Part shown: positions 3,074 to 60,464 of the stretch, one piece after another
Layout: every line of letters begins with the position of its first letter
Position numbering within the stretch: the first letter of the stretch is position 1
DNA from: Acidimicrobiia bacterium
GTDB lineage: Bacteria > Actinomycetota > Acidimicrobiia > Spongiisociales > UBA11373
DNA length: 64,000 nucleotides
NCBI GenBank assembly: GCA_040878325.1
Contig: JBBDMM010000006.1
Coordinates: 35,012 to 99,011, forward strand
Direction: 5' to 3'
Notes under the pieces: model-generated
Database searches by the model: none
The model's input: only the letters and a program-made list of their open reading frames with translations
What the model was told of the DNA's origin: nothing
Program-made: the position numbers and the translations under genes

Positions 3074-4072
3074 CTAGTGCAGGCCGTCCGACGGGGCGGT
3101 GTACTCGATCTCGATCTCGTCCCAGACGTGGATCGGCATCCCCACCTTCACCCGCGCCGCCTCGAGGTCGTACCCGCCCTCTTCGGCCCATGGCCGCAAA
3201 AAGTCCATGTCCCAGGTGGGCACTCGTATGCAACCGTGCGACGCCGGGTAGTTGGGGACGCTGGGATATCCATGGATTCCGTAGTTCCACTCACCGTGCT
3301 GCCCGCGGTACCAGATGAACTTGTAGATCGACCACTCACCGGGCCGGGGCGACCAGCCTCGGCCATACCGATGCTCCCCGATGAAGGCGCTTCCCTCCTC
3401 GAGCCTGGCCGTGCGCGGAGTCACGCTGGAGTTGCAGCCATCTTCGGTCCGGCAACCCACCGTGCCGCGGCCGGCCCCGGTACTCACCGGCATGATCGCT
3501 TCGACCTTCCCTTGCTCGACCAGATAGAGCACCTGATGGCCGATGTCGACCTCCACCCGATCGGGTTGATCCTCACGCAAGGTCGGGGGGCGGGGGACGA
3601 ACGCCCGGAGGAGGTCCCAGTCCTCGGCAACCCAGTCCAACGGCGGGGGATTGGCGATCCAATCTGCTCGGGCGGTGGCCGGATTGGTGTGTGCCGGGCC
3701 GGTCAGTTTGTGAAAGGTGACGACGGCGTACTGGGTCTTGGCGTCGTACACCCCGCTCATCGGCCCGCGATAGAGCTTCCGCTCGGTCAACAGCCATTGG
3801 AGGGTGAACACCGACCAGGTGGCGTCGCCGGGGCACAGGTCGCCGTCGCGACGAACCTCGGCGGGAACCTCACACGGGTTGCGTCGCTCGGTCCAGTCGA
3901 TCGGGAGCGTTCTGCCGGCCAGGGTGGAACCGGGGTGAAGCCCGTTCGAGTAGACAGCAACCGCCCCGAGGTCGCCCGAAGCGGGGGCAGGCACCAGGGT
4001 GATAGCCAGCATGGCGACGGCGACGACGATCCCGCCGCGGGAGGTAGCCGCCTCTAGACGCCTCGCCGCCAA
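3074..4072 (-). CDS. L,D-transpeptidase (YkuD domain) with peptidoglycan-binding-like region and signal peptide
   Basis: Catalytic motif SHGCIRV near the C-terminus. N-terminal signal/TM segment. PG-binding-like stretch LYRGPMSGVYDAKTQYAVVTFHKL. Confidence 0.8.
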   Translation of the reverse strand: MAARRLEAATSRGGIVVAVAMLAITLVPAPASGDLGAVAVYSNGLHPGSTLAGRTLPIDWTERRNPCEVPAEVRRDGDLCPGDATWSVFTLQWLLTERKLYRGPMSGVYDAKTQYAVVTFHKLTGPAHTNPATARADWIANPPPLDWVAEDWDLLRAFVPRPPTLREDQPDRVEVDIGHQVLYLVEQGKVEAIMPVSTGAGRGTVGCRTEDGCNSSVTPRTARLEEGSAFIGEHRYGRGWSPRPGEWSIYKFIWYRGQHGEWNYGIHGYPSVPNYPASHGCIRVPTWDMDFLRPWAEEGGYDLEAARVKVGMPIHVWDEIEIEYTAPSDGLH

Positions 4073-4130: not shown

Positions 4131-5372
4131 TCACAACGGCACGACGTTGGCCGCAACGATGCCTCGCCGACGATAAGCACCCCGCGTGTCGAAAACGACG
4201 TCGACGGCTCCAGCGATCGCCTGCAGGTCGAACAAGTCGTGATCGGCGAGAATCACCGCAAGTGCGCATCCCTCGGGGAGGGCATCGACCCGGGCGATTC
4301 CGAGGCCCTCGATCTCGGCGTCCTCCACCAAAGGGTCCCACGCGACCACCTGTGCCCCCCGGCGGGTCAACTCGCCGATCACGTCGAGGGCCGGCGACTC
4401 ACGGGCATCGCCCACCCCGGACTTGTAGGCCAGGCCCACCGCGAGCACCTTTGTCGAGTACACCGGCAGACCACGATCGTTGAGGATCTCTGAGATCCGG
4501 TTGGCGACGTACTCGGGCATGCGGGCATTGACCTCCTCGGTGAGGTCGATGAATCGCGTGGCGAATCCGGCCTCCTTTGCCCGCCAGGCGAGATACTGCG
4601 GGTCGAGCGGGATGCAATGGCCGCCTACGCCGGGCCCGGGATAGAAGGGTTGGAAGCCGAATGGCTTGGTGGCCGCCGCATCGATCACTTCCCAGATGTC
4701 CACATCGATCTCATGGGCCAGCGCAGCCATCTCGTTGACGAGGCCGATGTTGACTGCGCGATAGGTGTTCTCGAGCAGCTTCGCCATCTCGGCGACCCTG
4801 GCCGATGAAACCGGGTGGACCGCATCGACCATCCGCCGGTACGCCGCGGCGGCGACCCTGCCCGACTCGGCACTGACCCCGCCGACCAGCTTCGGGATCG
4901 ATCCGATGCCATGACCTGACCCCGGGCTGACGCGCTCGGGTGAAAACGCGACAAAGACGTCGGAGTCGAGAACCAGGCCCCCCTTAGTGGCCGCCGGCAC
5001 CAGCAGGTCCTCGGTGGTACCCGGGTAGGTGGTGGACTCCAGCGCGACGAGGGTTCCGGCATGGACCACTCTGCTCACGGTCCCGGCGGCTGCCTCGATG
5101 AAGGAGAGATCGGGCTGACGATGCCGGTTGAGCGGGCTGGGGACGCAGATGAAGAGTGCATCGGCTTCCCGCAGACGAGACTCGTCGTCGGTGATTTCGA
5201 GCCCCCCGGCAAGGGCGGCCGCCAGCGATTCGGCGGATACATCCTCCACGGGCGAGTCGCCGGCTCGAATCCGCTCGACCACCTTCGTCGAGATGTCGAA
5301 TCCGATCACGCGCAGGCCTCGCTCGACGGCGTTCACCGCCAAAGGGAGCCCCACGTAGCCGAGGCCGATCAC
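4131..5372 (-). CDS. nucleotide-sugar dehydrogenase (UDP-ManNAc / UDP-GlcNAc 6-dehydrogenase family)
   Basis: N-terminal Rossmann VIGLGYVGLP, catalytic GGHCIPLDP, C-terminal UDP-binding region. GTG start. Confidence 0.85.
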   Translation of the reverse strand: MIGLGYVGLPLAVNAVERGLRVIGFDISTKVVERIRAGDSPVEDVSAESLAAALAGGLEITDDESRLREADALFICVPSPLNRHRQPDLSFIEAAAGTVSRVVHAGTLVALESTTYPGTTEDLLVPAATKGGLVLDSDVFVAFSPERVSPGSGHGIGSIPKLVGGVSAESGRVAAAAYRRMVDAVHPVSSARVAEMAKLLENTYRAVNIGLVNEMAALAHEIDVDIWEVIDAAATKPFGFQPFYPGPGVGGHCIPLDPQYLAWRAKEAGFATRFIDLTEEVNARMPEYVANRISEILNDRGLPVYSTKVLAVGLAYKSGVGDARESPALDVIGELTRRGAQVVAWDPLVEDAEIEGLGIARVDALPEGCALAVILADHDLFDLQAIAGAVDVVFDTRGAYRRRGIVAANVVPL

Positions 5373-5532: not shown

Positions 5533-6390
5533 TCAGACGATCGGGGGGCGGCCGAGGCGGAGCATCCGCCACGCCGTCCGCCACCTCATCGGGGCGCGCG
5601 CTCCCGCCGGGTCCGTGAACCCCGCCCGATATCCGCGGCGCAGGGCGCCGAGATCGCTCCACGATCGGACGGTGCCGAGCGACAGAAGCCCTCGCACCAT
5701 CAGATACACGACAGCCAGCGGCACCGGCAGTCGGCGGCGTGACAGCAGCACCCGGTTGCGGGCAGTGCTGTAGATCGCACCGCTTCGCTGGCTCAAAGAA
5801 ACGACCGGGTGGACCACCTCGAGGTTCCCGGAGTACCGGATGTCGTAGCCGGCATCGAGCAGACGCCAGGCGAGGTCGGTCTCTTCGAGGGCGTAGAAGA
5901 ACTCCTCCGGAAACCCACCGACTTCGTCGATCACCGACCGGCGGATTGCGCAGGCCCCTCCCAGGAAGGTGGTCACGCGCGCCGTCCGCCGCGACCGCGC
6001 CTTCCACAGCATGGGAATGTGCTTCGAGATCACCCGCCCGGACTCGTCGACGATGCGGAATGAGATGACGGCGAGTCGAGGGTCGGCTTCGAAAGCGGCC
6101 GCCGCCTCGCTGATGACACTCGTCGCGCCATAGCGGGCGTCGTCGTCGAGAAAGAACACGACATCTTCGTTGGCCGCACCCCAACCCAGATTCCGCCCGG
6201 AAGCAACGCCGACGTTCTCCGGCGACACGACCACGGTGGCGTGACCGCGGTCCGGGGTTGGAATGCAGCCATTTCCCACGAGGATGAGCTCGGCCTGGGG
6301 GCCGGTCTGCGTCCGAATCGATTCGATCGCCGATCGCAAGGCGTCAGGGCGATCACACATCGTGAGCACGACCACGGATGCGCTGGTCAT
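5533..6390 (-). CDS. family 2 glycosyltransferase
   Basis: GT-A fold pattern VVVLTMCDRPDAL...ELILVGNG...DDDA. ATGA overlap with the upstream gene. Confidence 0.75.
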   Translation of the reverse strand: MTSASVVVLTMCDRPDALRSAIESIRTQTGPQAELILVGNGCIPTPDRGHATVVVSPENVGVASGRNLGWGAANEDVVFFLDDDARYGATSVISEAAAAFEADPRLAVISFRIVDESGRVISKHIPMLWKARSRRTARVTTFLGGACAIRRSVIDEVGGFPEEFFYALEETDLAWRLLDAGYDIRYSGNLEVVHPVVSLSQRSGAIYSTARNRVLLSRRRLPVPLAVVYLMVRGLLSLGTVRSWSDLGALRRGYRAGFTDPAGARAPMRWRTAWRMLRLGRPPIV

Positions 6391-7157
6391 CGGAGGCGGT
6401 CGGAGGCAAGCACCGACACCAGATGGCCCACCGCGACGAGGGCCGCCACTGTCACCATCGCCGTCACCAGCCACTGGCTCGCCGCCAGATCGGATCTCAC
6501 CGCGTCGAACACCGCCGCCACCAGGATGAGCGTGCTCGCCTCGACGGCTCCGGTGATCCGATGCAGGGGAACGAAGTCGGCGATCCGCCGCAGAAGCCTG
6601 AGAGCAGGCGCCCGGATGCGGGACCCCTCGTCACCGATAGCCGGCATGCCCGATTTCGCCCGGGCGGCGTCGACCAGGTCCGTTTCGATCCGGGCGAGCA
6701 CCGCGGCGAGGGCGGCTCCCAGACCCACGGCCAACCAGACGGAGTCGTCACCTCCACCCGCACGCCAGCCGAGGCCAACGAGAAGCGTCGCCTCGACCAG
6801 GTAGTGGGAGATGCGGTCGAGGTACACGCCGCGCGGGCTCTCGGTCGAGTTCCAACGGGCTACCTCGCCATCGACACAATCGAGCAACAGATACAACTGG
6901 ACGCCGACGAACGCCCCGATGGCCGGCCACACCCCGCCGACGAACAGGAGGGTGGAACCCGCCAGGCCCACGGCCAGCATCAGGAGGGTGACTCCATCGG
7001 CGCTCAAGCCAAGGGAGAGCGCCGCCCGGGTGAAGTAGATCGACAGCCCCCGCATGTACAAGCGGCCTGCCCAGTGTTCGTCGCTCCGCCGGCCGACGAT
7101 GCTCGCCGGCTGGCAGACGCGGCGCAGCTCAGCGATCGAAGGCTTCGATGAACGCAT
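6387..7157 (-). CDS. CDP-alcohol phosphatidyltransferase family protein (start uncertain between 7055 and 7184)
   Basis: Signature DCVDGEVAR (D-x2-D-G-x2-A-R) within multi-helix hydrophobic protein. Confidence 0.7.
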   Translation of the reverse strand: MRSSKPSIAELRRVCQPASIVGRRSDEHWAGRLYMRGLSIYFTRAALSLGLSADGVTLLMLAVGLAGSTLLFVGGVWPAIGAFVGVQLYLLLDCVDGEVARWNSTESPRGVYLDRISHYLVEATLLVGLGWRAGGGDDSVWLAVGLGAALAAVLARIETDLVDAARAKSGMPAIGDEGSRIRAPALRLLRRIADFVPLHRITGAVEASTLILVAAVFDAVRSDLAASQWLVTAMVTVAALVAVGHLVSVLASDRLR

Positions 7158-8181
7158 CGACTCGCTGCCTTGTCTCGACGGCATCCAATTCCAGTCTTTC
7201 GAGGATGGTGAACCTTCCCGGCCGGGTCTCCGGTGCGGCAAGGACGACCGCGGTGAATTGCTCCGCGTCGAGTCCGATGTCCGCGGGCAGCCGGGGCACC
7301 TGATTGCGGGTGAAGCATTCATCGATGTCCTGCAGCCGGGCGTCGTCACGGAGGAACGAAGCGAACATCGCGCCGACCGCGGCCTGCTCCCCGTGGAGCG
7401 CCAGTCCCGGGTGCAGCCGGTCGATCGAATGGCTGATCTCGTGGCACGCCCCGCTGCACGGCCTGCTGGTGCCGGCCGCCGTCATCGCCAGCCCGCTGAC
7501 GATGAGGGCGTCTGCGAGGGCCTCGAGCCCCACCTGGTCCGGTGGGGTACGCGGCTCGTGCAGGATCGACAGAGCGGCCGCAGTTGCCATCGCGGCTGCC
7601 AGCCCGTCAAACGGCTCGTCGGTCACGTCCCGGGCCATGACCCAGTCGGCGACTGCAGACAGATTGGAGACCACCTCTCCGATGCCGGACCTCGCATGGC
7701 TCAGGGGGGCGGACCGCACGAGGTCGAGATCCACCACGACCGCGATCGGGGGTTGCACCCCGTAGGACCCCTTCCACCCGTTGTCCTCGAGCGCCGCCAC
7801 CGGTGAGGCAAGTCCGTCGTGGGTCAAGGTCGTCGCCACCGAAACGAAGGGGAGGCCCACCGCGGTGGCGGCCCACTTGGCGACATCCAGGGATCCGCCG
7901 CCGCCGATGCCAACGAGAGCCTCGAACTGCTTTCCCCTGAGCAGGTCGGACAGTTCCCGGGCGGACGCCAGGCTTCCACCGTCGACTTCGAAGACTGGGG
8001 CCGACAGGGAGGCCTCGACGCTCGATCGGACCTCCGCCCCGACTCCGGAACCCACCGCCACCGCGATCCGGCCGGTGGTCGCGATACGCCGGTCAGCCAG
8101 CAAGTCGGCCAACCCGGCGACGGCGCCGGCCCGCACATCCACCATCAGCGGCCCGGCGAGGACGCGCGCTAAGAGTGCCAT
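7129..8181 (-). CDS. sn-glycerol-1-phosphate dehydrogenase (AraM/EgsA family, iron-containing ADH superfamily)
   Basis: GIGGGGSLDVAKWAA and VSVATTLTHDGLASP match G1PDH family signatures. Start at MALLARV overlaps upstream stop. Confidence 0.75.
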   Translation of the reverse strand: MALLARVLAGPLMVDVRAGAVAGLADLLADRRIATTGRIAVAVGSGVGAEVRSSVEASLSAPVFEVDGGSLASARELSDLLRGKQFEALVGIGGGGSLDVAKWAATAVGLPFVSVATTLTHDGLASPVAALEDNGWKGSYGVQPPIAVVVDLDLVRSAPLSHARSGIGEVVSNLSAVADWVMARDVTDEPFDGLAAAMATAAALSILHEPRTPPDQVGLEALADALIVSGLAMTAAGTSRPCSGACHEISHSIDRLHPGLALHGEQAAVGAMFASFLRDDARLQDIDECFTRNQVPRLPADIGLDAEQFTAVVLAAPETRPGRFTILERLELDAVETRQRVDAFIEAFDR

Positions 8182-8927
8182 TTCATCATCTTCGCCCGTT
8201 CGAGGTCTTCCGGCGTGTCTATTTCGATCCAGGGGAGATCGCCCACCTCTACCCCGTACACCCCGTGGGCGCGGGCAAAGTCGCCGATGCCATCCTCGTA
8301 GTAGAGCGAGCCGTCCTTTCTCCATGCCTGCTCGAGGCACGCCACAAACGGGGCGATCGCTTCAGGGGCGAGCCGAGCGATGCCGACGTACTCACCGTGG
8401 GCCTGCTCCGGATGGAGGCCCTTCGAAATGCCGGTGAGCCACCCGGATGAGTCGAAGGTGACTTTCATCTCCTCGTCGGCCAGCGCCTTCTTCGAGTCGA
8501 TCGCCAGCGCTAGGCCGGCGGGCGGGGCGTCTATCAGCCGCCGCATTGCGGTATCGGTGACGAGGGTGTCGCCATTGGCCACCAAGCAGTCCCCACTGAT
8601 CCCACCCAAGCCCAGCCACAGCGAATGGGCGTTGTTGAGGACCGCATGATCGGGGTTGTCGATCAACTCGATCTCGAGCCCGTAGTGCGACTCGAGGCTG
8701 CTACGGCGCCGGCCCACCTCCTCGGACGCGTGCCCGACGACCAAACGGACCCTTGAAACTCCAGACTCGGCGAGCACCCCCAGCACGTGGTCGAGCACCG
8801 TCCGCCCGCCGCCTAGATCGAGAAGGGTCTTGGGGAGGTCGCGGGTGAACGGCAGAAGTCGCCGCCCCTGACCGGCGCAAAGGACTACCGCCTGCGAAAT
8901 CGACTCGATTCGGGGCTCCTCGGTCAC
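8169..8927 (-). CDS. sugar/alcohol-phosphate nucleotidyltransferase (cytidylyltransferase-like)
   Basis: N-terminal AVVLCAGQGRRL (GxGxRL nucleotidyltransferase motif). About 250 aa, typical for GlmU/LicC/IPCT-like NTPases. Confidence 0.75.
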   Translation of the reverse strand: MTEEPRIESISQAVVLCAGQGRRLLPFTRDLPKTLLDLGGGRTVLDHVLGVLAESGVSRVRLVVGHASEEVGRRRSSLESHYGLEIELIDNPDHAVLNNAHSLWLGLGGISGDCLVANGDTLVTDTAMRRLIDAPPAGLALAIDSKKALADEEMKVTFDSSGWLTGISKGLHPEQAHGEYVGIARLAPEAIAPFVACLEQAWRKDGSLYYEDGIGDFARAHGVYGVEVGDLPWIEIDTPEDLERAKMMKWHS

Positions 8928-8933
8928 GGCAAG

Positions 8934-9019
8934 AGGCTAGGGCAGGGCAGGGGGCAGGTCGCAGGTGGCAGGTGGCAGGTGGCTCCTGATCGGCTCTTGG
9001 TTCTTGACTCTTGGCTCTC
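8934..9019. repeat. intergenic heptamer tandem repeats: G-rich (GGCAGGG)n then (GCAGGTG)x4, followed by (CTCTTGG)-like x3
   Basis: Direct reading: gggcagggcagggggcaggtcgcaggtggcaggtggcaggtgg ... ctcttggttcttgactcttggctctcc. Lies between ABC ATPase stop and NTase start. Confidence 0.8.
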
Positions 9020-9021
9020 CT

Positions 9022-9780
9022 TCAGTCGTCGTCCTCGTCGCCCCCGCCCGTCCAATCGATGTACGCCCTGACGACGTCATCGGGGGTTCCGTCCGCCATG
9101 AGCCGTCCCTCGTCGAGCCATATGGCCCGGGTGCACACCCGATCGATCTGCTTGAGGTTGTGACTCACGAGGACCACGACCTTGGCGTTCGCGCGTAGCT
9201 CTTCGATGCGCTTCAGGCTCCGCCGCCTGAAGTCGCGGTCCCCGACCGCAAGCACCTCATCGACCAGCAGGATCTCGGGTTCCATCGATGTCGCGATCGC
9301 GAAATGAAGGCGCGAACGCATGCCGGACGAATAGGTTCGGAGTGGCCGGTCGATCGCCCGACGCAACCCGGCGAAGTCGACGATGGAATCGAAGCGAGAC
9401 TCGGATTCGGCGCGGGTCATTCCCAGCGCCATGCAGCCGAGGAGGATGTTGCGCGCTCCAGACAGCTGACCATCGAGCACCGCCCCCACGCCCAATAGAG
9501 TCGGCTCACCCCGCACCCGGATCGACCCCGCCGACACGGGCTGCAGACCAGCGATGGCACTCAGCAATGAGCTCTTCCCCGACCCGTTGGCTCCGATGAG
9601 ACCCAGGATCTCACCGGTCTCGACCGTGAAGGACACGTCTTTCACGGCCTCGACCTGGGTGTGCTCACGCCGCCGACGACGCACGGTGATCTGCTCACGC
9701 AGGCTGGGGCGGCGGTCGAGGTACACCCGGTAGGTCACGCTGGCGTCCTTTACCTCGATGGCCGTCATCGGCTCATTCAC
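9022..9780 (-). CDS. ABC transporter ATP-binding protein, polysaccharide/teichoic-acid exporter type (TagH/Wzt-like)
   Basis: Walker A GANGSGKSS, signature YSSGMRSRL, Walker B ILLVDE. Pairs with ABC-2 permease. Confidence 0.85.
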   Translation of the reverse strand: MNEPMTAIEVKDASVTYRVYLDRRPSLREQITVRRRRREHTQVEAVKDVSFTVETGEILGLIGANGSGKSSLLSAIAGLQPVSAGSIRVRGEPTLLGVGAVLDGQLSGARNILLGCMALGMTRAESESRFDSIVDFAGLRRAIDRPLRTYSSGMRSRLHFAIATSMEPEILLVDEVLAVGDRDFRRRSLKRIEELRANAKVVVLVSHNLKQIDRVCTRAIWLDEGRLMADGTPDDVVRAYIDWTGGGDEDDD

Positions 9781-10645
9781 GGCCGTAGTCCCGCTCGCGT
9801 CGCTGGAACCAGACGTAGCCGACGACGGGCGTGATCAACGCCCAGGAGAAAGCGCTGATGACGAGCAGGCGGGTCACCGGCATGTCCATCACCGCCCACC
9901 GATACAGCGAGATGTAGTCGAGCAGGGGATTCAGGTTCGCCAGCGCCCGTACGGTCCCATCCTGGACGAATCGCTCGACCAGAAACAGGACTCCCGAGAA
10001 GTAGAAAGCCATCCGGAACAGGAAGTCGAGAATGTTCTCGAAGTCACGGAAGTAGAAGGTGATGCGTGCGGCGATGAAGGCGGCCCCCACCACGAACAGG
10101 GTCTGGAGCCCGAAGATCGGCAGTATCAGGAGCCATCGCAGCGACAGCGTTTCCCCGGTGAGGAGCGCTACTGCCAGCATCACGATTGCCGGGGCCAGGA
10201 ACGCCGCAGCTTCCGACGCGGTGACCGCTATGGGAAGCGTGGCCCTGGGGAAGGCGATCGACTGGATCAGTCCGCGGTTGCTGATCAGAGATCGCGCCGC
10301 ACCGACTATCGACTTGCGCATGTACTGGAAGGCGAAGATGCCGATGGCGAGGAAAGGCAGAAAGTTGCCCACCCCGCGGTCGATCTCCAGTATCAGGCCG
10401 AAGATGATGTAGTAGACGAGCACCTGCCAGGCCGGGTTGAGCAGGTGCCAGACGTTTCCGAGCACCGTGTCCATCTGCTGGCTGTGCAGATTCGACACCG
10501 CCGCAAACATCACGAAGTGGCGGCGAGACCACAGCCGAAGCAGGTCCTCCCGGATCGGTCGGCGCCGCGACGGATCTTGTAGCTCGCCGCCGAGCAACCC
10601 CCCGTCCGATGGCCCGTCCGACGACTGCCCGATCGGTTCGCTCAT
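9773..10645 (-). CDS. ABC-2 type transporter permease (TagG/Wzm-like)
   Basis: Six-helix ABC-2 permease profile. 8-nt overlap with the ATPase gene. Confidence 0.8.
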   Translation of the reverse strand: MSEPIGQSSDGPSDGGLLGGELQDPSRRRPIREDLLRLWSRRHFVMFAAVSNLHSQQMDTVLGNVWHLLNPAWQVLVYYIIFGLILEIDRGVGNFLPFLAIGIFAFQYMRKSIVGAARSLISNRGLIQSIAFPRATLPIAVTASEAAAFLAPAIVMLAVALLTGETLSLRWLLILPIFGLQTLFVVGAAFIAARITFYFRDFENILDFLFRMAFYFSGVLFLVERFVQDGTVRALANLNPLLDYISLYRWAVMDMPVTRLLVISAFSWALITPVVGYVWFQRRERDYGRE

Positions 10646-12169
10646 CTAGCCGAACTCGATGCCCTGGGCGAGCGGCAGGTCGCTGCTCCAGTTGACCGTG
10701 TTGGTCTGGCGACGCATGTACGCCTTCCAGGAGTCCGACCCCGCTTCCCGACCCCCACCGGTCTCCTTCTCACCGCCGAAGGCGCCACCGATCTCGGCGC
10801 CGGAGGTGCCGATGTTGACGTTGGCAATTCCGCAATCCGATCCCTCGGCCGAGAGGAACAACTCCGATGCCCGCAAGCTGTTGGTGAATATGGCCGAAGA
10901 CAAGCCCTGCCGAACCCCGTTGTGGACTGCAATCGCATCGTGAACGTCGGTCGCTTCGATGACGTAGAGGATGGGGGCAAAGGTCTCCTCCTGAACGATC
11001 GGCGCATCGCGGTCGATCTCGATGATGGTCGGCTCCACGAAGTGGCCGTTCAACCCAGGCACTTCGGCCCGGCCCCCACCGTGGAGGACCTTGCCGCCCT
11101 GGTCCTTGGCGATCTCGACGGCCGCCAGCATCTCGTCAACCGCGCCCTTGTTGACCAGCGGACCCATCACCGTCGAGGGGTCGAGGGGGTCGCCGATGCG
11201 CACCTGGGAGTAGGCATCGACAAGGCGTTTGATGACGTCGCCCTTGATCCCTGACTCGACGATCATCCGCCGGATCGAGGTGCACCGCTGCCCGGCGGTA
11301 CCGACTGCCCCGAACAACACCGCCCTGGTCACCAGCCCCGGGTCGGCGTCTTCGAGCACGACCACCGCATTGTTCCCCCCCAACTCGAGTAGCGACCTCC
11401 CGAGACGCTTGGCGACCGCGATTCCCACCTTCTCGCCCATGTTGCACGATCCGGTAGCCGAGATCAGCGGGATCCGTCGGTCGTTGATGAGCAAGTCGCC
11501 GACCTCGCTCCCCTTGCCGACCGCGAGGTTGAAGACGCCTTCGTAACCGGAGCCGGCCATGACCTCATCACAGATTCGGGTGACGGCGATCGCCGTCAGC
11601 GGGGTATGCGACGACGGCTTCCAGATCATCGTGTCGCCGCACACCGCAGCGACGAAGGCGTTCCACGACCACACCGCCACCGGGAAATTGAAGGCCGAGA
11701 TCACGCCGATCGGGCCGAGCGGGTGCCACTGCTCGAACATCCGATGGCGTGGCCGCTCCGACGCCATGGTCAGCCCGTAGAGCTGCCGCGAAAGGCCGAC
11801 GGCGAGGTCGGCCATGTCGATCATCTCCTGCACCTCGCCCTCACCCTCGGCGCGGATCTTCCCCATCTCCAGGGAAACCAGCGCAGCCAGGTGCTCCTTC
11901 TTGTGGCGGAGGGCGTTGCCAATCAGGCGCACGTACTCACCGCGCTTGGGAGCAGGCAGCATCCGCCAGCGCAGGAACGTCTCCTGGGCCGACGCAACGA
12001 TCTGGTCGTAGTCGGCGGCCGAGGTCTGCACGACGGTGGCGATCTCGGTGGCCGTCGTCGGGTTCTCGACCGACAGGTCGGTGCCGGACGGAGCGATCCA
12101 CCCGCCGGCGTACCCACCCGGATTGCTGTCGCCCAAACCGAGGGCGGCGAAGATCTCGTCTCTCGTCAC
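10646..12169 (-). CDS. piperideine-6-carboxylate / alpha-aminoadipic semialdehyde dehydrogenase (ALDH7 family)
   Basis: Near full-length collinearity with ALDH7/antiquitin signatures (GEYVRLIG..., [48 protein letters not shown]-like). Confidence 0.9.
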   Translation of the reverse strand: [507 protein letters not shown]

Positions 12170-17400: not shown

Positions 17401-18522
17401 CAGCACGTTCAGGAGCCGATCGATGTCGGCCTCGTCGTTGTAGAGGTGTGGAGCCACCCGCATCGCGTTGGCCCGAAGGCTCACGAACACGCCATTCTCG
17501 GAGAGCCGCTGTCGCAGGCCCACCGGTTCTCCGGCAGGAAATCGGACACCGATGAGATGTGGAACCCGATCCGCCGCGGCGACCGGCTCGAGTCCCAGTC
17601 GGCGTGCCCCCTCCTCGACCCGAGCGGTCAATGGTGCCAACGCCGCGGACACTCGTTCGGGCCGCCACCCGGCGATCAACTCCAGAGCAGCCGACGCCAT
17701 CGGAAGCAGCACAAAGTTGCTCCATTCACCGGCGTCATACCGACGGGCACCGTCGCGCAGCTCGTCGGTGTAGTCGACGAGTCGGTTGAAGTCGTCCGAG
17801 CCCTTCCGCCCCGTCCAGGTCGACTCGATGCCGCGCCCTCCACGATGCTGCTCCGCTACCCACATGTAGCCGAAGGCGTAAGGCCCCATCTGCCACTTGT
17901 AGCCCACGGTCACCAGAAAGTCGGGCCGGATCACCGAGACGTCGATCGGTAGGGCCCCGACGGATTGGGACATATCGAGGACGAGCGCGGCCCCCACCGA
18001 ACGGGCTGCCGACCCAACGGCCTCGAGGTCGACCGCACTGCCATCGGTCCAATGGCAGGCCTGGGCGACCACCACCGCGGTGCGCTTGTCGATCGCGTCG
18101 AGAAATGCCGCTGTCCTCGAACCGCTCCGAGGAACCACGACGATCTCCCCGCCCTCGGCGGCCGTCTTCTCCCGCCACGGGTACACGTCGGAGGGGAACT
18201 CGTCCTCGACCATCACCACGGTGCGACCCGGGCCCACCGCGAGATTGCGAGCGGCGACGCCAACGCCGTACGAAGCCGACGGGACGAACGCCACCCCGTC
18301 GGCGTCGCCACCGATCAGCTCGGCGAACTGCTGCCTGAGGCGCTCACCCGGTTCAAAGAAGTCGACCGGGGTGACGTGCCAGGGGAACGCGGCCGACTCG
18401 AGGGCGCGTCGACCCGCCTCGCGCACCGGATGCGGCATCGGAGGAAAGTACGCGCAGTTGAGGTAGGTGACGTCCCCAGGGATGTCGAACAGGTGGCGTT
18501 GCGACGAGAGCGGTTCGTCCAC
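17359..18522 (-). CDS. class V aminotransferase-fold PLP-dependent enzyme
   Basis: About 387 aa with YLNCAYF...fold-type I pattern, similar to cysteine desulfurase / isopenicillin-N epimerase-like family. Confidence 0.75.
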   Translation of the reverse strand: MDEPLSSQRHLFDIPGDVTYLNCAYFPPMPHPVREAGRRALESAAFPWHVTPVDFFEPGERLRQQFAELIGGDADGVAFVPSASYGVGVAARNLAVGPGRTVVMVEDEFPSDVYPWREKTAAEGGEIVVVPRSGSRTAAFLDAIDKRTAVVVAQACHWTDGSAVDLEAVGSAARSVGAALVLDMSQSVGALPIDVSVIRPDFLVTVGYKWQMGPYAFGYMWVAEQHRGGRGIESTWTGRKGSDDFNRLVDYTDELRDGARRYDAGEWSNFVLLPMASAALELIAGWRPERVSAALAPLTARVEEGARRLGLEPVAAADRVPHLIGVRFPAGEPVGLRQRLSENGVFVSLRANAMRVAPHLYNDEADIDRLLNVLEDSSGYRPSPSKR

Positions 18523-26369: not shown

Positions 26370-26440
26370 GCGGGCGTAGTTCAATGGCAGAACACGAGCT
26401 TCCCAAGCTCGGAGTGAGGGTTCGATTCCCTTCGCCCGCT
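26370..26440 (+). tRNA. tRNA-Gly (anticodon CCC)
   Basis: Manual cloverleaf: acceptor GCGGGCG/CGCCCGC, D-arm GTTC...GAAC, anticodon stem CGAGC/GCTCG with loop TTCCCAA, T-arm GAGGG-TTCGATT-CCCTT, discriminator U. No encoded CCA. Confidence 0.85.
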
Positions 26441-26465
26441 CAGTCGGCTGCCCTGCGGGCGGCCT

Positions 26466-28824: not shown

Positions 28825-29985
28825 CTAACGGTTCGCCCGGGCGCGCTCCCAGATCCGCTCGAGTGCTTCGGCCGAGGCATCCCACCCGAAGTGCTCCTCG
28901 ACGAACAGCCGCGCCCGCTCGGCCATCAGCCGCGCCTCGGCGGGATCATCGATGAGGGCAAGGGCCGCCGCAGCGATCGCCGTTGCGTCCTCGCCCACGA
29001 GCAGGTGGGTGCCGGGGACCGCCCCCACCGCCTCCGCCGCTCGCGGGGTGGTCACCACGGGGGTTCCGACCGCCATCGCCTCGAGCACCTTGTTCTGCAT
29101 CCCGGTGCCGGCGCGCATCGGGACGATCGCCACCCCCGCCCGGGCGACGATCGCTCCGAGGTCTTCAGGGCCTGGAATCAGGGCCACCCCTGGAGCCTGA
29201 GCCAGCCGCTTGATCGCATTCGAGGGACGGGCGCCGGCGAGGACGAGACTGGCGGTGGGGATGGTGCGGCGGAGGACGGGCAGCACCTCGGTGGCGGCGA
29301 TTCGGGCGGCGTCCACATTGGGGAAGTACCCGAGGTTCCCCGCAAACACCAGGGTGTACGGGTCGCGACCTTCAGCCCGGAACGAAAAGTGTTCTAGATC
29401 GACGCCGTTGGGGATGACCTCCACCCGGTCCCCCAGGGCGGTGGCGTCGGCTGCAGTGGCGGCGACCACCGACACCCCCCGGCGCATCAAGCCGCTCTCG
29501 TATAGGAAGACGCGCCGCGCCTCCCACCGGGCCGCCAGACCGCGGACGCCACGATCATGATCGGCACGGCGGTGGAGATTCACCGACATTGCATCGATCA
29601 GATCGACCACCACCGGGGGCCCTGCTTCCGGGAGCAGCGGAGCCGTCCTGATCAGCTGAGTATGGATGAGGTCGACTGAGCCGCCCAGCTGCTCGATCCG
29701 CCGCCGCGCTGCCCTCCCGGTGTACGGAAGCGACTGTGCGGGACGTCGGTCCAGCGGCGCCCGGCCCATCCGGGCGACGGCTCCCGAAGACGACATCGGC
29801 ACCACCTCGAGCCTCACCCCCAGGCCTTCCACCTTCGCTCGATCGGCAGGCGACGGCACCCGGCCGACAAGGCAAACGGTTATGTCGTGGCGGGGTGCCA
29901 GCTGGCGCAATTGGTGATAGGCCCGCACCTGATCGCCCCGCCACGGCGGGTAGGGGAGCCGGCTGACCACGAAGAGAACACGCAC
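28825..29985 (-). CDS. family 4 glycosyltransferase (GT-B)
   Basis: MRVLFVVSRLPYPPWRGDQVR N-terminus. C-terminal EX7E-like region. About 386 aa. Confidence 0.8.
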   Translation of the reverse strand: MRVLFVVSRLPYPPWRGDQVRAYHQLRQLAPRHDITVCLVGRVPSPADRAKVEGLGVRLEVVPMSSSGAVARMGRAPLDRRPAQSLPYTGRAARRRIEQLGGSVDLIHTQLIRTAPLLPEAGPPVVVDLIDAMSVNLHRRADHDRGVRGLAARWEARRVFLYESGLMRRGVSVVAATAADATALGDRVEVIPNGVDLEHFSFRAEGRDPYTLVFAGNLGYFPNVDAARIAATEVLPVLRRTIPTASLVLAGARPSNAIKRLAQAPGVALIPGPEDLGAIVARAGVAIVPMRAGTGMQNKVLEAMAVGTPVVTTPRAAEAVGAVPGTHLLVGEDATAIAAAALALIDDPAEARLMAERARLFVEEHFGWDASAEALERIWERARANR

Positions 29986-50788: not shown

Positions 50789-53257
50789 TTGAGCGAAGCA
50801 TTCTGGGAGCAGGGCGATACGGTCGATCGTGTCCCCGTCCACATCAGCATGCGGATCATCGAGCTCTTTTCAGAGGGCTTGTACGCCAGTCCGAACAAGG
50901 CACTTGAGGAGTTGGTCGCTAACGCGTTCGATGCGGGGGCGACCAGGACTCACGTTGCACTCTCTGTGGACCTCTCGGCTGACGATGCGCTTATCGTCGT
51001 CATCGACAACGGCGTAGGCATGGACGCGGCCGGTCTGAAGAAGCACTGGATCATCGGTGAGAGCGACAAGCGCACGACAGCGGATTCTCGCAAACGAGCT
51101 CCGATCGGGAAATTCGGAATCGGGAAGCTCGCAACATTCGTACTTGCTAGTCGCCTGACACATATCTCAAAGGCTGGCGGGAAGTACTGGTCAACCAGCA
51201 TGGACTTCTCGACCCTCCCTACCGGGAAAGGGGCTGAGACCGACCAAGTCGACCTCGACCTCCGAGAGCTTACGCTTACCGAGGCGAAGGCTGCCGTCTC
51301 CCAAATTCTCGAGACCGCCGGGCTAGGCATGAAGAGCGTTCCCCTTTTCGGTCGTGGCGCGGACGAGTCGTGGACTGTCGCCGTTATGTCCGACCTGAAA
51401 CCGATGGCGACGGAGATCACCATCGGGCGCCTCGGCTGGGTGCTAAGAACTGGAATGCCGCTCCGCGATGATTTCGTGTTGGTGCTCAATGGCACCGAGT
51501 TGACACCAGCAAAGGGTTCGAAGCATCGGATCGCGCGCCTCAGGCTCGGGGATGACGTCAAGTCAGTCCCGAAACCGGCAACCGACGACTACGAAGTCTC
51601 GGTTGATAAGAAACGCGGAGCGGACGACGGGCGATTCGGCCTCGTGGGTGCTCAACTCGGGCGAGTTACCGGCTACCTCGAGGTTTACGAGAATCCCATT
51701 GATACTGGGAAGGCGTGGGAACGATCGAATGGCTTCTTTGTGTATGTGCGAGGACGGCTGATCAACGGCGCAGATCCGGGATTCGGACTCGACCGAAACC
51801 TGCTTCGACACGGTACGTTTTCTCGGATGCGAGCCGTCGTCCACATGGACCGCCTTGACGACGAATTGCGCTCCTCGCGCGAGTCTGTTCGCGAGGGACC
51901 CACCCTTTTCGAAGCCCGCCACTTCCTCCACGGACTCTTCAACCTCGCCCGCAACACCTTGACCGGTTTTGAGGAAGAGCATGACCCGAGTAGACGTGTC
52001 GGCGACCGATTCGCCGCGGGACCTGCAAGTCTGACAGTCGCGCCGATACTTCGACTAGCAGCCGCAGCGATCCGAGGAGATGCAGTGCCGCTTCTCCTTG
52101 AAGTCGCGCTGCCAGCTGGGGTCTCCGCAGATGACTTCATCACCGACTTGAACAGGGCGGCCGAGGAGGCCGGTGGAATCCTCCGGGGGACTTCGCTAAC
52201 GGACCTTGGCCCCAGATCGGGTATCGCTCGCCTCAACCTCAGCGAGGGATTACTTCAGATCAATCTGGCTCACCCTTTTGTTGCCAGCTTCGTAGATGAC
52301 TTCTCGGATCCAAAGAGGAGTCTCCCACTAGAGCTACTGGCGATGGCCGAAGTCGTGCTCGAAGCGCAACTTTTCGACCAAGGGATGTCGACCGCCGACG
52401 CCCGTGAAGTACTCCGACAAAGGGATGACACCCTACGTGTTCTTGCGAGAGAACACGCTGAGCCGAATGCGATCACGATTGCCCAAGAGCTCTTGGATAG
52501 CGTATCGGACAAGGCAGCGCTTGAGACGGCTGTAGTCGCCTGCTTCGACTCGCTCGGATTCGAGGCTGTCCATGTGGGTGGGAAGGAAAAGCCCGACGGG
52601 TACGCCGATGCCCACCTCGGGGTTGAGAGCGATCTCAGCAAGGCGGCCTATAGGGTCACACTCGAGGCGAAGAGCAAGGAGCGGCCCGGGGCGAAAGCCG
52701 CTTCGAAGGCAGTCGGGGTGTCAGCCATTGAACGCCACATGACCGACTTCGGGGCAAAACACTGTGTTGTCGTCGCTCCCGACTTCGAGAAGGGCGTATT
52801 GAGCAAGGAGATCACTGCGGTTCGCGAGAAGACCGGTAGGTCCATAACCCTGGTGCGAGCGATCGACCTAGCCCGCCTCGTGCGCTTGGCGCCTCGCAAG
52901 GGGATCAACCTCTCGGACCTCGAGGAGCTCTTCGAGTGTTCAACGTCTGATGAAGTGTCGGAGTTCGTAGACAGCATCGAGAAGCTGCCGGACCGCACGA
53001 ATACCTTCAGGACGATCCTCGAGGCAATCTGGCAGGAGCAACAGGAACAGCCGGACGCCGCGGTTCACTACTCGGCGCTTCGAGTAGCACTGCGGAAGTC
53101 GGCGAACATCAAACTGAGCGACGATGAAGTGAAGTCCGCGTGCATGGCGCTCTCGGCCATGGCGCCGACACACGTCTTCGCCCGTACCGATCGCGTGGAA
53201 CTAAGCATCCGACCCGATAAGGTTCTTGCCGCGATCGCCGCGTACATAGCAGCATGA
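50789..53257 (+). CDS. MORC-like GHKL ATPase fused to C-terminal Mrr-type PD-(D/E)xK restriction-endonuclease domain (TTG start)
   Basis: N-box ELVANAFDAGAT, G1 IDNGVGMD, G2 GKFGIGKLA, then a transducer-like middle domain. C-terminal KPDGYADAHLG ... YRVTLEAKSKE gives PD-x(n)-ExK. Locus GC is clearly lower than the rest of the window. Confidence 0.75.
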   Translation: MSEAFWEQGDTVDRVPVHISMRIIELFSEGLYASPNKALEELVANAFDAGATRTHVALSVDLSADDALIVVIDNGVGMDAAGLKKHWIIGESDKRTTADSRKRAPIGKFGIGKLATFVLASRLTHISKAGGKYWSTSMDFSTLPTGKGAETDQVDLDLRELTLTEAKAAVSQILETAGLGMKSVPLFGRGADESWTVAVMSDLKPMATEITIGRLGWVLRTGMPLRDDFVLVLNGTELTPAKGSKHRIARLRLGDDVKSVPKPATDDYEVSVDKKRGADDGRFGLVGAQLGRVTGYLEVYENPIDTGKAWERSNGFFVYVRGRLINGADPGFGLDRNLLRHGTFSRMRAVVHMDRLDDELRSSRESVREGPTLFEARHFLHGLFNLARNTLTGFEEEHDPSRRVGDRFAAGPASLTVAPILRLAAAAIRGDAVPLLLEVALPAGVSADDFITDLNRAAEEAGGILRGTSLTDLGPRSGIARLNLSEGLLQINLAHPFVASFVDDFSDPKRSLPLELLAMAEVVLEAQLFDQGMSTADAREVLRQRDDTLRVLAREHAEPNAITIAQELLDSVSDKAALETAVVACFDSLGFEAVHVGGKEKPDGYADAHLGVESDLSKAAYRVTLEAKSKERPGAKAASKAVGVSAIERHMTDFGAKHCVVVAPDFEKGVLSKEITAVREKTGRSITLVRAIDLARLVRLAPRKGINLSDLEELFECSTSDEVSEFVDSIEKLPDRTNTFRTILEAIWQEQQEQPDAAVHYSALRVALRKSANIKLSDDEVKSACMALSAMAPTHVFARTDRVELSIRPDKVLAAIAAYIAA

Positions 53258-54468
53258 CCTATCTGCACCCGTTTCCGGCGCGGATGGCCCCCGAATTGGC
53301 AGCGGCAGCCATCGACCACCTTGAAGGCCCCAGGCAGCGGGTCCTAGACCCGATGTGTGGCTCTGGAACGACACTGCTTGCAGCGCGCAGGGCTGGCCAC
53401 CATGCGATCGGTCTGGACCTTGATCCACACGCCGTGATGCTGTCGAAGGGCCTCCTGACGAGCTACGAATCGAACCTCCTCCGCGACGCCAGCGAAGAGG
53501 TCCTCCAACTCGCAAGAAGCATCAAAGGCCGGATTACGCAAGGGACCGCGTATCCCGAAAGCTCGGATTTCGCCACGCGCGAGTTTCTCCGGTATTGGTT
53601 CGACCCGGCGACGCGTATCCAACTCACAGCACTGATACGGGTAATCGACGAGCAGCCTCGCGACGAGCTTTGGAGGCTCCTACGAATCGCATTCTCGCGA
53701 ATGATCATCGTTAAAGAGAATGGCGTGTCACTGGCGATGGACGTCGCTCATAGTCGCCCGCATCGAACTTACGACAAGTCCCCAACTCACCCTTTTGACC
53801 TGTGGCCAGTCTCGATCGCGACGGTAGCGCGAGCCATCGAGGTATCCCGAGTCCCGGACGATCACCCGTTGGCGTCTGTCATGTTGGGCGACGCGCGGGC
53901 GACCGGCCTCCCCGACTCGTCGATCGATGCAATCGTCACCTCACCCCCATACCTCAACGGAATCGACTACATCCGGGCTTCCAAGTTTGCTCTCGTGTGG
54001 TTTGGGCACAACGTGGGTGAACTGCGCGAGTTGCGAGCGTCGTTGGTGGGAGCAGAGAGAGGACTGGCAGCCAGCGAACTCAGCGGCCTGGTCGCTGAGT
54101 TTGACGACGCCCATTGGTATCGCGAGCTCCCAAGTCGGCAACGGGGTCTGGTGCACCGGTACCTGGCGGATATGAGAAGCGTACTTGCAGAGTCGGCGAG
54201 GGTATTGAAGCTTGGGGCGACAGCCGTGCTCGTTGTTGGAGACTCAAGGCACCGGGGAGTCACAATCCCCAACAGCGAGATCCTTCAGCGTCTGGCGAGT
54301 CTTGCTGGCTTCAAGATCATCAAGAAAGTAGCGAGGCCCCTTCCGACGAAACACCGATACCTCCCACCGCCGCAGTCAACGGCGACGTCCGACCTGGATC
54401 GGCGACTGTCTTCCGAGTGGGTGCTCACTTTCAAGAAGACGAGTGGGTGCTCACCTTCAAGAAGATAG
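53254..54468 (+). CDS. DNA methyltransferase (amino-MTase, N6-adenine or N4-cytosine), translationally coupled (ATGA) to the GHKL-nuclease gene
   Basis: Motif X/I HPFPARMAPELAAAAI...VLDPMCGSGTT near the N-terminus and motif IV IVTSPPY about 200 aa downstream. Confidence 0.85.
   Translation: MTYLHPFPARMAPELAAAAIDHLEGPRQRVLDPMCGSGTTLLAARRAGHHAIGLDLDPHAVMLSKGLLTSYESNLLRDASEEVLQLARSIKGRITQGTAYPESSDFATREFLRYWFDPATRIQLTALIRVIDEQPRDELWRLLRIAFSRMIIVKENGVSLAMDVAHSRPHRTYDKSPTHPFDLWPVSIATVARAIEVSRVPDDHPLASVMLGDARATGLPDSSIDAIVTSPPYLNGIDYIRASKFALVWFGHNVGELRELRASLVGAERGLAASELSGLVAEFDDAHWYRELPSRQRGLVHRYLADMRSVLAESARVLKLGATAVLVVGDSRHRGVTIPNSEILQRLASLAGFKIIKKVARPLPTKHRYLPPPQSTATSDLDRRLSSEWVLTFKKTSGCSPSRR
54415..54466 (+). 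repeat. 26-bp imperfect tandem duplication (2 copies, 24/26 identical) spanning the MTase stop codon
   Basis: gagtgggtgctcactttcaagaagac | gagtgggtgctcaccttcaagaagat. Removing one copy puts the MTase in frame with the downstream kinase ORF. Confidence 0.9.
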
Positions 54469-54665
54469 GACGAGCCTTCAATCAAACAGCCCCGCTCTCC
54501 GACGCAGCGCAGGGGCTAGCCGATTCACGCTCTGGGCCTGCCGCACCATCCCGCACCATCAGGGTTGAAGTCACCACGTCGAAGACGCCACGAGGATGGC
54601 CACCTCGATTCGCGGTCGCGAAGTCTAGTGTCCCTCTCTATGCGACCGTTACCTGGGAGGCCAAG

Positions 54666-60440: not shown

Positions 60441-60464
60441 TTTGCCAGAACACCACGCAGGCAG

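Follow-up and report, generated by a model that had tools for sequence, protein, structure and literature searches.

In the 64,000-nucleotide stretch of Acidimicrobiia bacterium DNA analysed here (the window; positions 35,012 to 99,011 of contig JBBDMM010000006.1, assembly GCA_040878325.1), we found a minus-strand locus built around three genes, encoding a LicC/IPCT/PntC-type nucleotidyltransferase (NTase), a protein of the sn-glycerol-1-phosphate dehydrogenase (G1PDH) family (EgsA/AraM-like) and a CDP-alcohol phosphotransferase (CDP-AP) that resembles AF2299 of Archaeoglobus fulgidus. This trio is the conserved core of the locus, and a GT2 glycosyltransferase and an ABC exporter are add-ons. 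On balance, we favour the reading that the locus encodes a TagD/TagF-independent route from dihydroxyacetone phosphate (DHAP) via sn-glycerol-1-phosphate (Gro1P) and CDP-glycerol to an exported envelope glycopolymer that contains glycerophosphate (GroP). Such a pathway had been proposed in an initial annotation of the window, and it withstood the computational tests that were available. The system is widespread; what is new is the recognition of the trio as a conserved unit, of a transferase clade that carries a histidine in place of the catalytic aspartate and is coupled to GT2, and of the exporter as an accessory component.

In the proposed pathway, the G1PDH-family enzyme would convert DHAP with NAD(P)H to Gro1P, which the coupled LicC/IPCT-type NTase would activate with CTP to the sn-1 enantiomer of CDP-glycerol. 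The AF2299-like membrane transferase would then, at the cytoplasmic face, transfer glycerophosphate onto a hydroxyl acceptor, most likely a sugar placed by the coupled GT2 on a lipid-linked chain, with an NDP-sugar dehydrogenase supplying a uronic-acid donor. If GT2 and transferase act in turn, the polymer would resemble a poly(glycosyl-glycerol-phosphate); otherwise a glycan could be decorated by the transferase. The product would be exported by the ABC-2 transporter (of the TagGH/Wzm-Wzt type) and attached to peptidoglycan (by an LCP ligase) or to a lipid anchor by means of genes outside the window.

Evidence for a common function comes from conservation, which goes far beyond chance. Relatives of the dehydrogenase were collected by scanning one genome per species, which yielded at least 577 loci, and the best 80 were analysed, with partner genes counted by hidden Markov model searches of the six-frame open reading frames. 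These 80 loci are without exception from Actinomycetota, and the carriers include Micromonospora, Nocardiopsis, Actinomadura, Actinoplanes, Spirillospora, Kribbella and Wenjunlia (Streptomycetaceae), as well as members of the Solirubrobacteraceae (Solirubrobacterales), Gaiellaceae (Gaiellales), Nitriliruptoraceae (Nitriliruptoria) and Nanopelagicales. The NTase gene lies immediately upstream of the G1PDH homologue in all 80 loci and a CDP-alcohol transferase gene follows in 69 of them (most of the misses being on short contigs); 45 loci have a GT2 and 25 have the ABC pair. The gene neighbourhood, whose conservation the initial annotation had named as a check on its proposal, is thus maintained across classes of Actinomycetota. 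A reverse search that started from two homologues of the window transferase (from Capillimicrobium parvum and from a metagenome-assembled genome) again returned the NTase-G1PDH pair directly upstream.

The transferase gene (6387..7157, minus strand; this and the other corrected coordinates derive from our own checks and from the independent gene calls of Logan SRR27977662, a public contig of 15.5 kb with identical sequence) encodes a protein of 256 aa with six transmembrane (TM) segments that matches PF01066 with 27.6 bits (gathering threshold 22). A profile of its family scores 65 bits against AF2299 and about 29 bits against PIPS and DIPPS, and a Foldseek search with the AlphaFold model (pLDDT 83, pTM 0.80) returned AF2299 first, followed by PIPS, DIPPS and PgsA1, all of which are CDP-APs. 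Eight 'absolutely conserved' signature residues and a nucleotide-binding motif P(D/N)xx(T/S) have been defined for this family (PMC4634129). The latter, at the start of TM1, reads A-D-G-V-T in the window protein and P/A-N/D-x-x-T in its orthologues, with T57 invariant. Seven of the eight signature residues are kept in the motif DCVDGEVARWNSTESPRGVYLDRISH (6804..6881, minus strand; D1xxD2GxxAR(x8)GxxxD3xxxH), which contains the stretch DCVDGEVAR, and the eighth, the fourth aspartate (D4), is replaced by His118 (6804-6806), a residue that a gap-free alignment with AF2299 places on D4.

This histidine is found in all 46 orthologous loci, is invariant in two further alignments and occurs in 120 of the 127 motif-bearing sequences that the 150 top-scoring representatives (50% identity level) of a library of 1.84 billion proteins contain; none of the 127 has an aspartate, and the remaining sequences are mostly fragments. 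The His-type proteins form a small, monophyletic clade (motif DxxDGxxAR(x8)GxxxDxxxH), and at 90% identity the family falls into no fewer than 4,234 clusters (E <= 1e-20). D4 is the putative catalytic base of the CDP-APs, and the D4N variant of the Mycobacterium tuberculosis PIPS has nearly no activity left while binding is unaffected (PMC4634129). Since the His-type enzyme is the sole possible consumer of a CDP-alcohol in the window and in the Nocardiopsis-type loci, it must be active, and the replacement must be a functional variant and not decay, an argument that is drawn from gene content. In AF2299, the glycerol of CDP-glycerol fits into a donor pocket that is small and hydrophilic (PMC4634129), and the window enzyme is predicted to take glycerophosphate from CDP-glycerol and pass it to an acceptor hydroxyl. 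Members of the family are named 'CDP-alcohol phosphatidyltransferase family protein' in the databases and mostly 'phosphatidylglycerophosphate synthase' in the JGI pipeline, the latter being probably wrong because the catalytic aspartate is absent and because of the gene context. A few metagenomic representatives (P0234 and P0255) appear to be single polypeptides of a His-type transferase and a GT2, which are too few, and possibly frameshift artefacts, and were left unused; if real, such fusions would speak, as a Rosetta stone, for a polymerase with two activities.

Three types of transferase can be distinguished in the related loci. The His-type is present in 46 of them, the window included; the ABC pair stands alongside it in 23 of these 46 and GT2 lies directly 3' of it in 37. 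A small transferase with the canonical aspartate follows the NTase-G1PDH pair in 22 loci of Micromonosporaceae (Micromonospora, Actinoplanes and relatives; e.g. L018, 9243-11759), never together with GT2 or the ABC pair. The third type is a large canonical paralogue (about 580-630 aa, its N-terminal domain resembling an NTase), which in many loci lies 5' of the NTase gene and is followed by, or fused to, the membrane domain DUF5941 (e.g. L081, 6884-9285; L082, 6917-9279; L088, 5715-8261; L073, 7525-9279). The architecture of the large paralogue is AF2299-like, and with DUF5941 it makes a candidate GroP polymerase. The window locus represents a minimal, 'Nocardiopsis-like' form.

The genes that accompany the His-type transferase in the window fit an envelope polymer. 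The GT2 gene (5533..6390, minus strand; 285 aa; Glycos_transf_2, 52.9 bits) is translationally coupled to the transferase gene by an ATGA overlap of 4 nt. The protein had no match among the sequences of the Protein Data Bank (PDB). The ABC-2 type permease (TagG/Wzm-like; 9773..10645, minus strand) has 290 aa and about six hydrophobic segments in its hydropathy profile; it scores 24.8 bits against ABC2_membrane, just below the cut-off of 26.9, and 58 bits against the NCBIfam model for galactan Wzm/RfbD, and its orthologues in the related loci are annotated as ABC2_membrane proteins. The ATPase (TagH/Wzt-like; 9022..9780, minus strand; 252 aa) matches ABC_tran with 78 bits, and among the NCBIfam models it scores highest with TagH (184.5 and 176 bits) and galactan Wzt (169.8 bits), all under their equivalog cut-offs; it is without a C-terminal carbohydrate-binding domain. 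The exporter that the initial annotation called TagGH-type corresponds to this ABC pair with TagH/Wzt-like scores; over the 80 related loci (25 with the pair) it turned out to be accessory. The NDP-sugar 6-dehydrogenase (4131..5372, minus strand; 413 aa) scores 374 bits against TIGR03026, above the cut-off, and 251 and 227 bits against WecC-type models and 214 bits against TviB, all under the cut-offs. Its closest relatives are UDP-ManNAc/UDP-GlcNAc dehydrogenases, and a uronic-acid donor is probably what it provides; Nocardiopsis loci have a homologue close to the cluster. Its gene starts with GTG (5349-5372, MIGLGYVG), the first Rossmann beta-strand is seemingly missing and there is no in-frame ATG, GTG or TTG further 5'. 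Possible reasons are a slight truncation of the gene or a start codon of an unusual kind.

The related neighbourhoods add further envelope genes, among them an LCP ligase (LytR_C domain) in 25-32 loci, a GDPD glycerophosphodiesterase in 24 and a membrane GT2/GT21-like enzyme near the trio in 31-53, besides GT4, Bac_transf, Wzy_C, PMT/GT-C, TarS-linker GT2, polyprenyl synthase, CW_binding_2 and Stealth proteins. Neither a TagD-type (CTP_transf_like) nor a TagF/TagB-type (Glyphos_transf) protein was detected among the nine window proteins that were scanned with Pfam and NCBIfam, or in eight Pfam-annotated related loci (+/-10 kb), in agreement with the initial annotation, to which the pathway looked unlike the classical TagD/TagF route.

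The same enzymes could, however, serve a lipid head-group pathway, in which CDP-glycerol would react with a lipid acceptor (diacylglycerol, a glycolipid or polyprenol) and the ABC-2 pump would be a flippase; the product could for example be a glycerophosphoglycolipid, or phosphatidylglycerol made in a Kennedy-type reaction, whose head group would have the natural sn-1' form. The classical role of CDP-alcohol phosphotransferases is phospholipid synthesis, 22-23 loci have the trio but neither GT2 nor ABC genes, and the membrane GT2/GT21-like enzyme (31-53 loci) and, in some loci, a polyprenyl synthase are found nearby. On the other hand, the nearest solved relatives of the transferase, AF2299 and DIPPS, use soluble donors in small hydrophilic pockets and are not users of CDP-diacylglycerol, and the His-type clade to which the window enzyme belongs keeps company with a GT2 of the soluble type and with an ABC-2 exporter, in neighbourhoods with LCP, Wzy_C and Bac_transf proteins. 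We therefore regard a lipid head group as a rather unlikely product of the window locus.

The first step of the proposed glycopolymer route depends on the identity of the dehydrogenase (7129..8181, minus strand; Fe-ADH_2), which has 350 aa and not the 351 initially given. Its score against the NCBIfam model for G1PDH (NF002022) is 226.4 bits, compared with 55.5 for GldA and 24.9 for AroB. In a search of the PDB with the single sequence, solved G1PDHs scored 122, 105 and 93 bits and GldA entries at most 45, and with a profile of 15 family members the G1PDHs reached 193, 167 and 111 bits (the last being AraM of B. subtilis, 9h4x), whereas GldA remained at or below 67 and dehydroquinate synthase (DHQS) at or below 43. 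The annotation as G1PDH, rather than as GldA or DHQS, was thereby corroborated. The AlphaFold model (pLDDT 90.4) has as its top folds PDB entry 3ce9 and the Methanocaldococcus jannaschii G1PDH with NADPH and DHAP (TM-scores 0.81-0.87), followed by the P. calidifontis G1PDH and AraM (0.76), with GldA entries just behind. The aspartate of THDG, the two histidines of CHEISH (H..H), the histidine of LHGEQ and the SRPxSG loop are invariant in the 15 homologues and identical in the alignment with the M. jannaschii enzyme; from what is known of the superfamily, we take them to be metal ligands and active-site residues. The motifs SRPxSGxxH and LHGEQ are common to both enzymes. Thus, by sequence and by model, the dehydrogenase groups with the G1PDHs, and it probably has this activity. 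In published phylogenies, actinobacterial (Streptomyces) sequences fall inside the bacterial G1PDH clan (PMC5059525, PMC6431249). The homologues carry only the NCBI name 'iron-containing alcohol dehydrogenase family protein'; the closest match in a genome is 57% identical to the window protein and metagenomic relatives are 70-97% identical. PDB entry 3ce9 (Clostridium acetobutylicum NP_348253.1) was deposited as a 'glycerol dehydrogenase', a label that is probably wrong, since the protein, which matches the window family best in both sequence and fold, scores with the G1PDHs and well above characterised GldA.

The NTase gene (8169..8927, minus strand; Pfam NTP_transf_3 and NTP_transferase) encodes 252 aa, with the GxGxRL motif at residues 18-24 (as LCAGQGRRL); an automatic call of 209 aa would lose this motif and the longer form was preferred. 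The first PDB matches of the single sequence are PntC, 4jd0 (presumably the Thermotoga inositol-1-phosphate cytidylyltransferase) and LicC. A profile of 14 sequences scored 74.7 bits against LicC, 70.3 against 4jd0 and 68.7 against PntC, the next match being a mannose-1-phosphate guanylyltransferase with 47.5 bits. This order would place the protein among the cytidylyltransferases of small phospho-alcohols, and the predicted reaction is that of CTP and Gro1P to CDP-glycerol. The initial annotation had considered that the enzyme might instead be a sugar-1-phosphate transferase; the PDB profile (69-75 against 47.5 bits) argues against this, but the order of the NCBIfam models favours sugar-1-phosphate enzymes.

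A second alternative is that the dehydrogenase does not function as a G1PDH and that some other alcohol phosphate is activated, such as glycerol-2-phosphate, as by Gtp1-3 of pneumococci, or another polyol phosphate; this group would then take the place of Gro1P in the polymer. The dehydrogenase score does lie under the G1PDH equivalog cut-off, glycerol dehydrogenases have the same fold with only slightly lower TM-scores, LicC-type NTases accept diverse phospho-alcohols (phosphocholine, inositol-1-phosphate, 2-aminoethylphosphonate) and CDP-2-glycerol pathways are found in capsule loci (PMC1391919). Against it, sequence profiles clearly set the dehydrogenase apart from GldA (193-215 bits for solved G1PDHs, at most 67 for GldA), the G1PDH-type motifs are as in the M. 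jannaschii enzyme, a glycerol-2-phosphate kinase or phosphotransferase is not conserved in the cluster and the published phylogenies put the actinobacterial clade within G1PDH (PMC5059525, PMC6431249). We consider the activation of another alcohol phosphate unlikely. The analogy with CDP-2-glycerol synthesis by Gtp1-3 was set aside, as no third (phosphotransferase) enzyme is conserved.

The product could also be a soluble phosphodiester osmolyte, made as by IPCT/DIPPS (diglycerol phosphate or glycerophospho-X), with the ABC genes as unrelated neighbours. The pairing of an NTase with a CDP-AP and the nearness of the two to IPCT and AF2299 mirror the solute pathways of archaea and thermophiles, and the large CDP-AP of the related loci has an NTase-like N-terminal domain, as has IPCT-DIPPS. 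Nevertheless, no phosphatase is conserved, the linkage to glycosyltransferases, ABC-2 exporters, LCP ligases, Wzy_C and Bac_transf is steady and the carriers are mostly mesophilic soil actinomycetes, all of which makes an osmolyte very improbable. Finally, a fortuitous juxtaposition of unrelated genes that share no pathway is effectively refuted by the conservation data, given four overlapping gene junctions and synteny across classes of Actinomycetota.

Several observations weigh against the glycopolymer route that we favour. With 226.4 bits the dehydrogenase stays below the 413 bits that the archaeal G1PDH model NF002022 sets as its equivalog cut-off, so that substrate or stereochemistry could differ, and for the NTase NCBIfam ranks Arch_glmU (61.7 bits) and AglF (48.4 bits) over IPCT-DIPPS (41.0 bits), all far under the cut-offs. 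The transferase has a histidine instead of the catalytic aspartate; because a D-to-N change leaves the M. tuberculosis PIPS nearly inactive, an unusual mechanism or acceptor class is possible. The ABC exporter is found in only 25 of the 80 loci, and the trio that stands alone in the Micromonosporaceae would, in these organisms at least, be in keeping with a lipid or a small molecule as the product. A search of the 64-kb window detected no initiating transferase, LCP ligase, GDPD, large CDP-AP/DUF5941 or membrane GT2. Gro1P could also be the acceptor instead of the activated donor, and for all members of the system the substrates, products, stereochemistry, acceptor and fate of the polymer are what we infer.

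A more far-reaching reading, which we offer as a tentative possibility, is that the trio represents an LtaS- and TagF-independent (lipo)teichoic acid machinery of the Actinomycetota, cytoplasmic and dependent on CDP-sn-1-glycerol, that would yield the sn-Gro-1-P stereochemistry of lipoteichoic acid (LTA), with the membrane CDP-APs (the large paralogue with DUF5941 and the His variant with GT2) taking over from TagF and LtaS as the primases or polymerases of GroP. In bacterial surface polymers, Gro1P is held not to derive from CDP-1-glycerol: the Gro1P of LTA, phosphatidylglycerol, rhamnose polysaccharides and lipopolysaccharide comes from other donors, and poly(glycosyl-glycerol phosphate) is made elsewhere in bacteria by TagF-like multidomain polymerases (PMC8262930). 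A cytidylyltransferase activity that prefers Gro1P has been described in A. fulgidus, with no gene assigned to it yet (PMC8262930). If the favoured route is true, it would overturn the working assumption that bacteria have no CDP-1-glycerol and always take Gro1P from phosphatidylglycerol (PMC8262930), and the teichoic acid machinery, if true, would give CDP-1-glycerol its first physiological role in bacteria and would add a new catalytic variant and a new task to the CDP-AP superfamily. There are LTA-bearing Actinobacteria (with poly(glycerophosphate)) that lack LtaS and for which the pathway is not known (PMC3196553), and the trio and its partners offer a concrete set of genes for such LtaS-free poly(glycerophosphate) (lipo)teichoic acids in Streptomyces and Thermobifida (PMC3196553). 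Thermobifida fusca and Agromyces are LTA-positive and have no LtaS. The clade of bacterial G1PDHs has been taken as a hint of archaeal-type lipids in the context of the 'lipid divide' (PMC6431249, PMC5059525); the conserved partners described here point to envelope polymer chemistry. The thousands of natural sequences with histidine for aspartate at an 'absolutely conserved' site also constitute a natural experiment on the CDP-AP mechanism.

The gene block itself has been seen before. A survey of synteny in the Streptomyces pan-genome from 2026 lists araM, tagG, tagH, an NTase, a CDP-AP and a GT2 as a block and ties it to teichoic acid genes, with no functional analysis (PMC13118837). In the literature accessible without subscription, we found no functional study of the block and nothing on DUF5941 or on an enzyme that acts as Gro1P cytidylyltransferase or makes CDP-1-glycerol; nor did we find relevant literature on the chirality of glycerol in actinomycete teichoic acids.

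Regarding the layout of the locus, all genes listed in the initial annotation are present on the minus strand in one direction and their families are upheld by Pfam and NCBIfam. The description of the genes as overlapping or nearly so applies to four of the seven junctions (permease/ATPase, 8 nt; NTase/G1PDH, 13 nt; G1PDH/transferase, 29 nt; and the 4-nt overlap of transferase and GT2), but not to the gaps of 94 nt between the ATPase and NTase genes, 160 nt between the GT2 and NDP-sugar dehydrogenase genes and 58 nt between the latter and an L,D-transpeptidase gene. The interval 5533-10645, which was said to hold seven genes, leaves out the sugar dehydrogenase (4131-5372). The 94-nt gap, the only sizeable one in the six-gene core, contains two short arrays of heptamer repeats (8946..9018; 5.4 copies of GGCAGGT at 8946-8983 and 3.9 copies of GGCTCTT at 8992-9018, detected by TRF) and is possibly an internal regulatory region. 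A scan for promoters and terminators between 2500 and 13000 gave no promoter and five terminator-like sites, no excess over shuffled sequence, and an Rfam scan of the whole window returned a single tRNA and no riboswitch near the operon. The GC content around the locus is about 0.65-0.68.

The L,D-transpeptidase that had been noted as the next gene in line is indeed there (3074..4072, minus strand; YkuD, 53 bits), with an N-terminal membrane anchor (TM segment at residues 13-31). It was not found in the 80 related loci and is a lineage-specific, co-directional neighbour outside the conserved system. At the other end, the gene directly 5' of the permease (10646-12169) encodes an L-piperidine-6-carboxylate dehydrogenase that scores above the equivalog cut-off, and this aldehyde dehydrogenase is therefore functionally unrelated to the operon. 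Its stop codon adjoins the ATG of the permease gene (TAGATG, 10643-10648), and the order RidA-aldehyde dehydrogenase-ABC recurs, with a gap, in one relative (L084, 2681-5436) whose dehydrogenase is 70% identical. The abutment may lead to read-through co-transcription of functionally unrelated genes.

Elsewhere in the window, a second set of nucleotide-sugar genes on the plus strand at 57307-63551 (encoding an AMP-binding enzyme, a DegT/EryC1 aminotransferase, a 2-oxoglutarate-Fe dioxygenase, an NAD epimerase/dehydratase and another UDP-sugar dehydrogenase, the second of the window) and a minus-strand GT4 gene (28825-29985) could contribute donors to the same or to another envelope polymer. A region of low GC content (50789-55454; 0.60-0.62, against about 0.67 elsewhere) carries genes for an 822-aa HATPase_c_3 protein (with weak matches to type II restriction endonucleases and MzaB), a type II N6/N4 DNA methyltransferase and an APH-like kinase, and is probably a restriction-modification or defence islet. 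A tRNA-Gly(CCC) gene at 26370-26441 was detected by ARAGORN and Rfam, and a 103-nt tRNA-Glu(CTC) called by ARAGORN at 17560-17662 (minus strand), which has no Rfam tRNA match at the gathering threshold, is probably a false positive.

Among the known systems, the synthesis of wall teichoic acid (TagD, TagB/TagF, TagGH) resembles the proposed pathway in its CDP-glycerol donor, assembly at the cytoplasmic face and ABC-2 export, and in the LCP ligases that are found in the related loci. It differs in that GroP stems from GpsA/GlpK (sn-3), whereas the window locus has a predicted G1PDH (sn-1), that TagD has a HIGH-motif fold and the window cytidylyltransferase a LicC/GlmU fold, and that TagF and TagB are Glyphos_transf proteins and the window transferase is an integral-membrane CDP-AP. 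The building block, phosphodiester-linked sn-Gro-1-P units, would be the same in LtaS-dependent LTA, but LtaS is an extracellular enzyme that draws on phosphatidylglycerol and the pathway of the window is proposed to be cytoplasmic. AraM of B. subtilis is likewise a bacterial member of the G1PDH family; there, however, Gro1P is prenylated by PcrB to an ether lipid, while the conserved partners of the window enzyme are a CDP-AP and a cytidylyltransferase. The Pfam-annotated neighbourhoods, in which no dedicated search for it was made, showed no homologue of GGGPS/PcrB. In Streptococcus pneumoniae (LicC/LicD and Gtp1-3/WchX), a LicC-fold cytidylyltransferase, as is proposed here, activates a small phospho-alcohol for the decoration of a surface glycopolymer, LicD being the transferase of the phosphocholine system. 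The origin of the alcohol phosphate is different there, and the transferase for CDP-2-glycerol is WchX; neither WchX nor LicD is recorded as a CDP-AP.

Further parallels are with IPCT/DIPPS and AF2299. In its logic the proposed system is akin to IPCT/DIPPS and to TagD/TagF/TagGH, but it belongs to neither. The di-myo-inositol phosphate pathway, like the proposed one, takes a polyol phosphate from a central metabolite, activates it with a LicC-fold cytidylyltransferase and transfers it from a soluble CDP-alcohol with a CDP-AP. Its polyol phosphate is made by inositol-1-phosphate synthase, in place of which the window locus has a G1PDH (no such synthase was detected among the scanned window proteins or in the Pfam-annotated related neighbourhoods); its product is a cytoplasmic osmolyte, made with neither a glycosyltransferase nor an exporter; and DIPPS keeps D4. 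The IPCT-DIPPS model scores 41 and 27 bits for window proteins, with a cut-off of 580. AF2299, an archaeal six-TM CDP-AP that was crystallised with CMP, CDP and CDP-glycerol, is the best match of the window transferase in sequence and fold. It keeps the canonical fourth aspartate where the clade of the window enzyme has histidine, and it has an N-terminal cytosolic domain that the window enzyme lacks. In AF2299 an N-terminal domain resembling an NTase precedes the CDP-AP domain, an order that recurs in the large transferase paralogue of the related loci.

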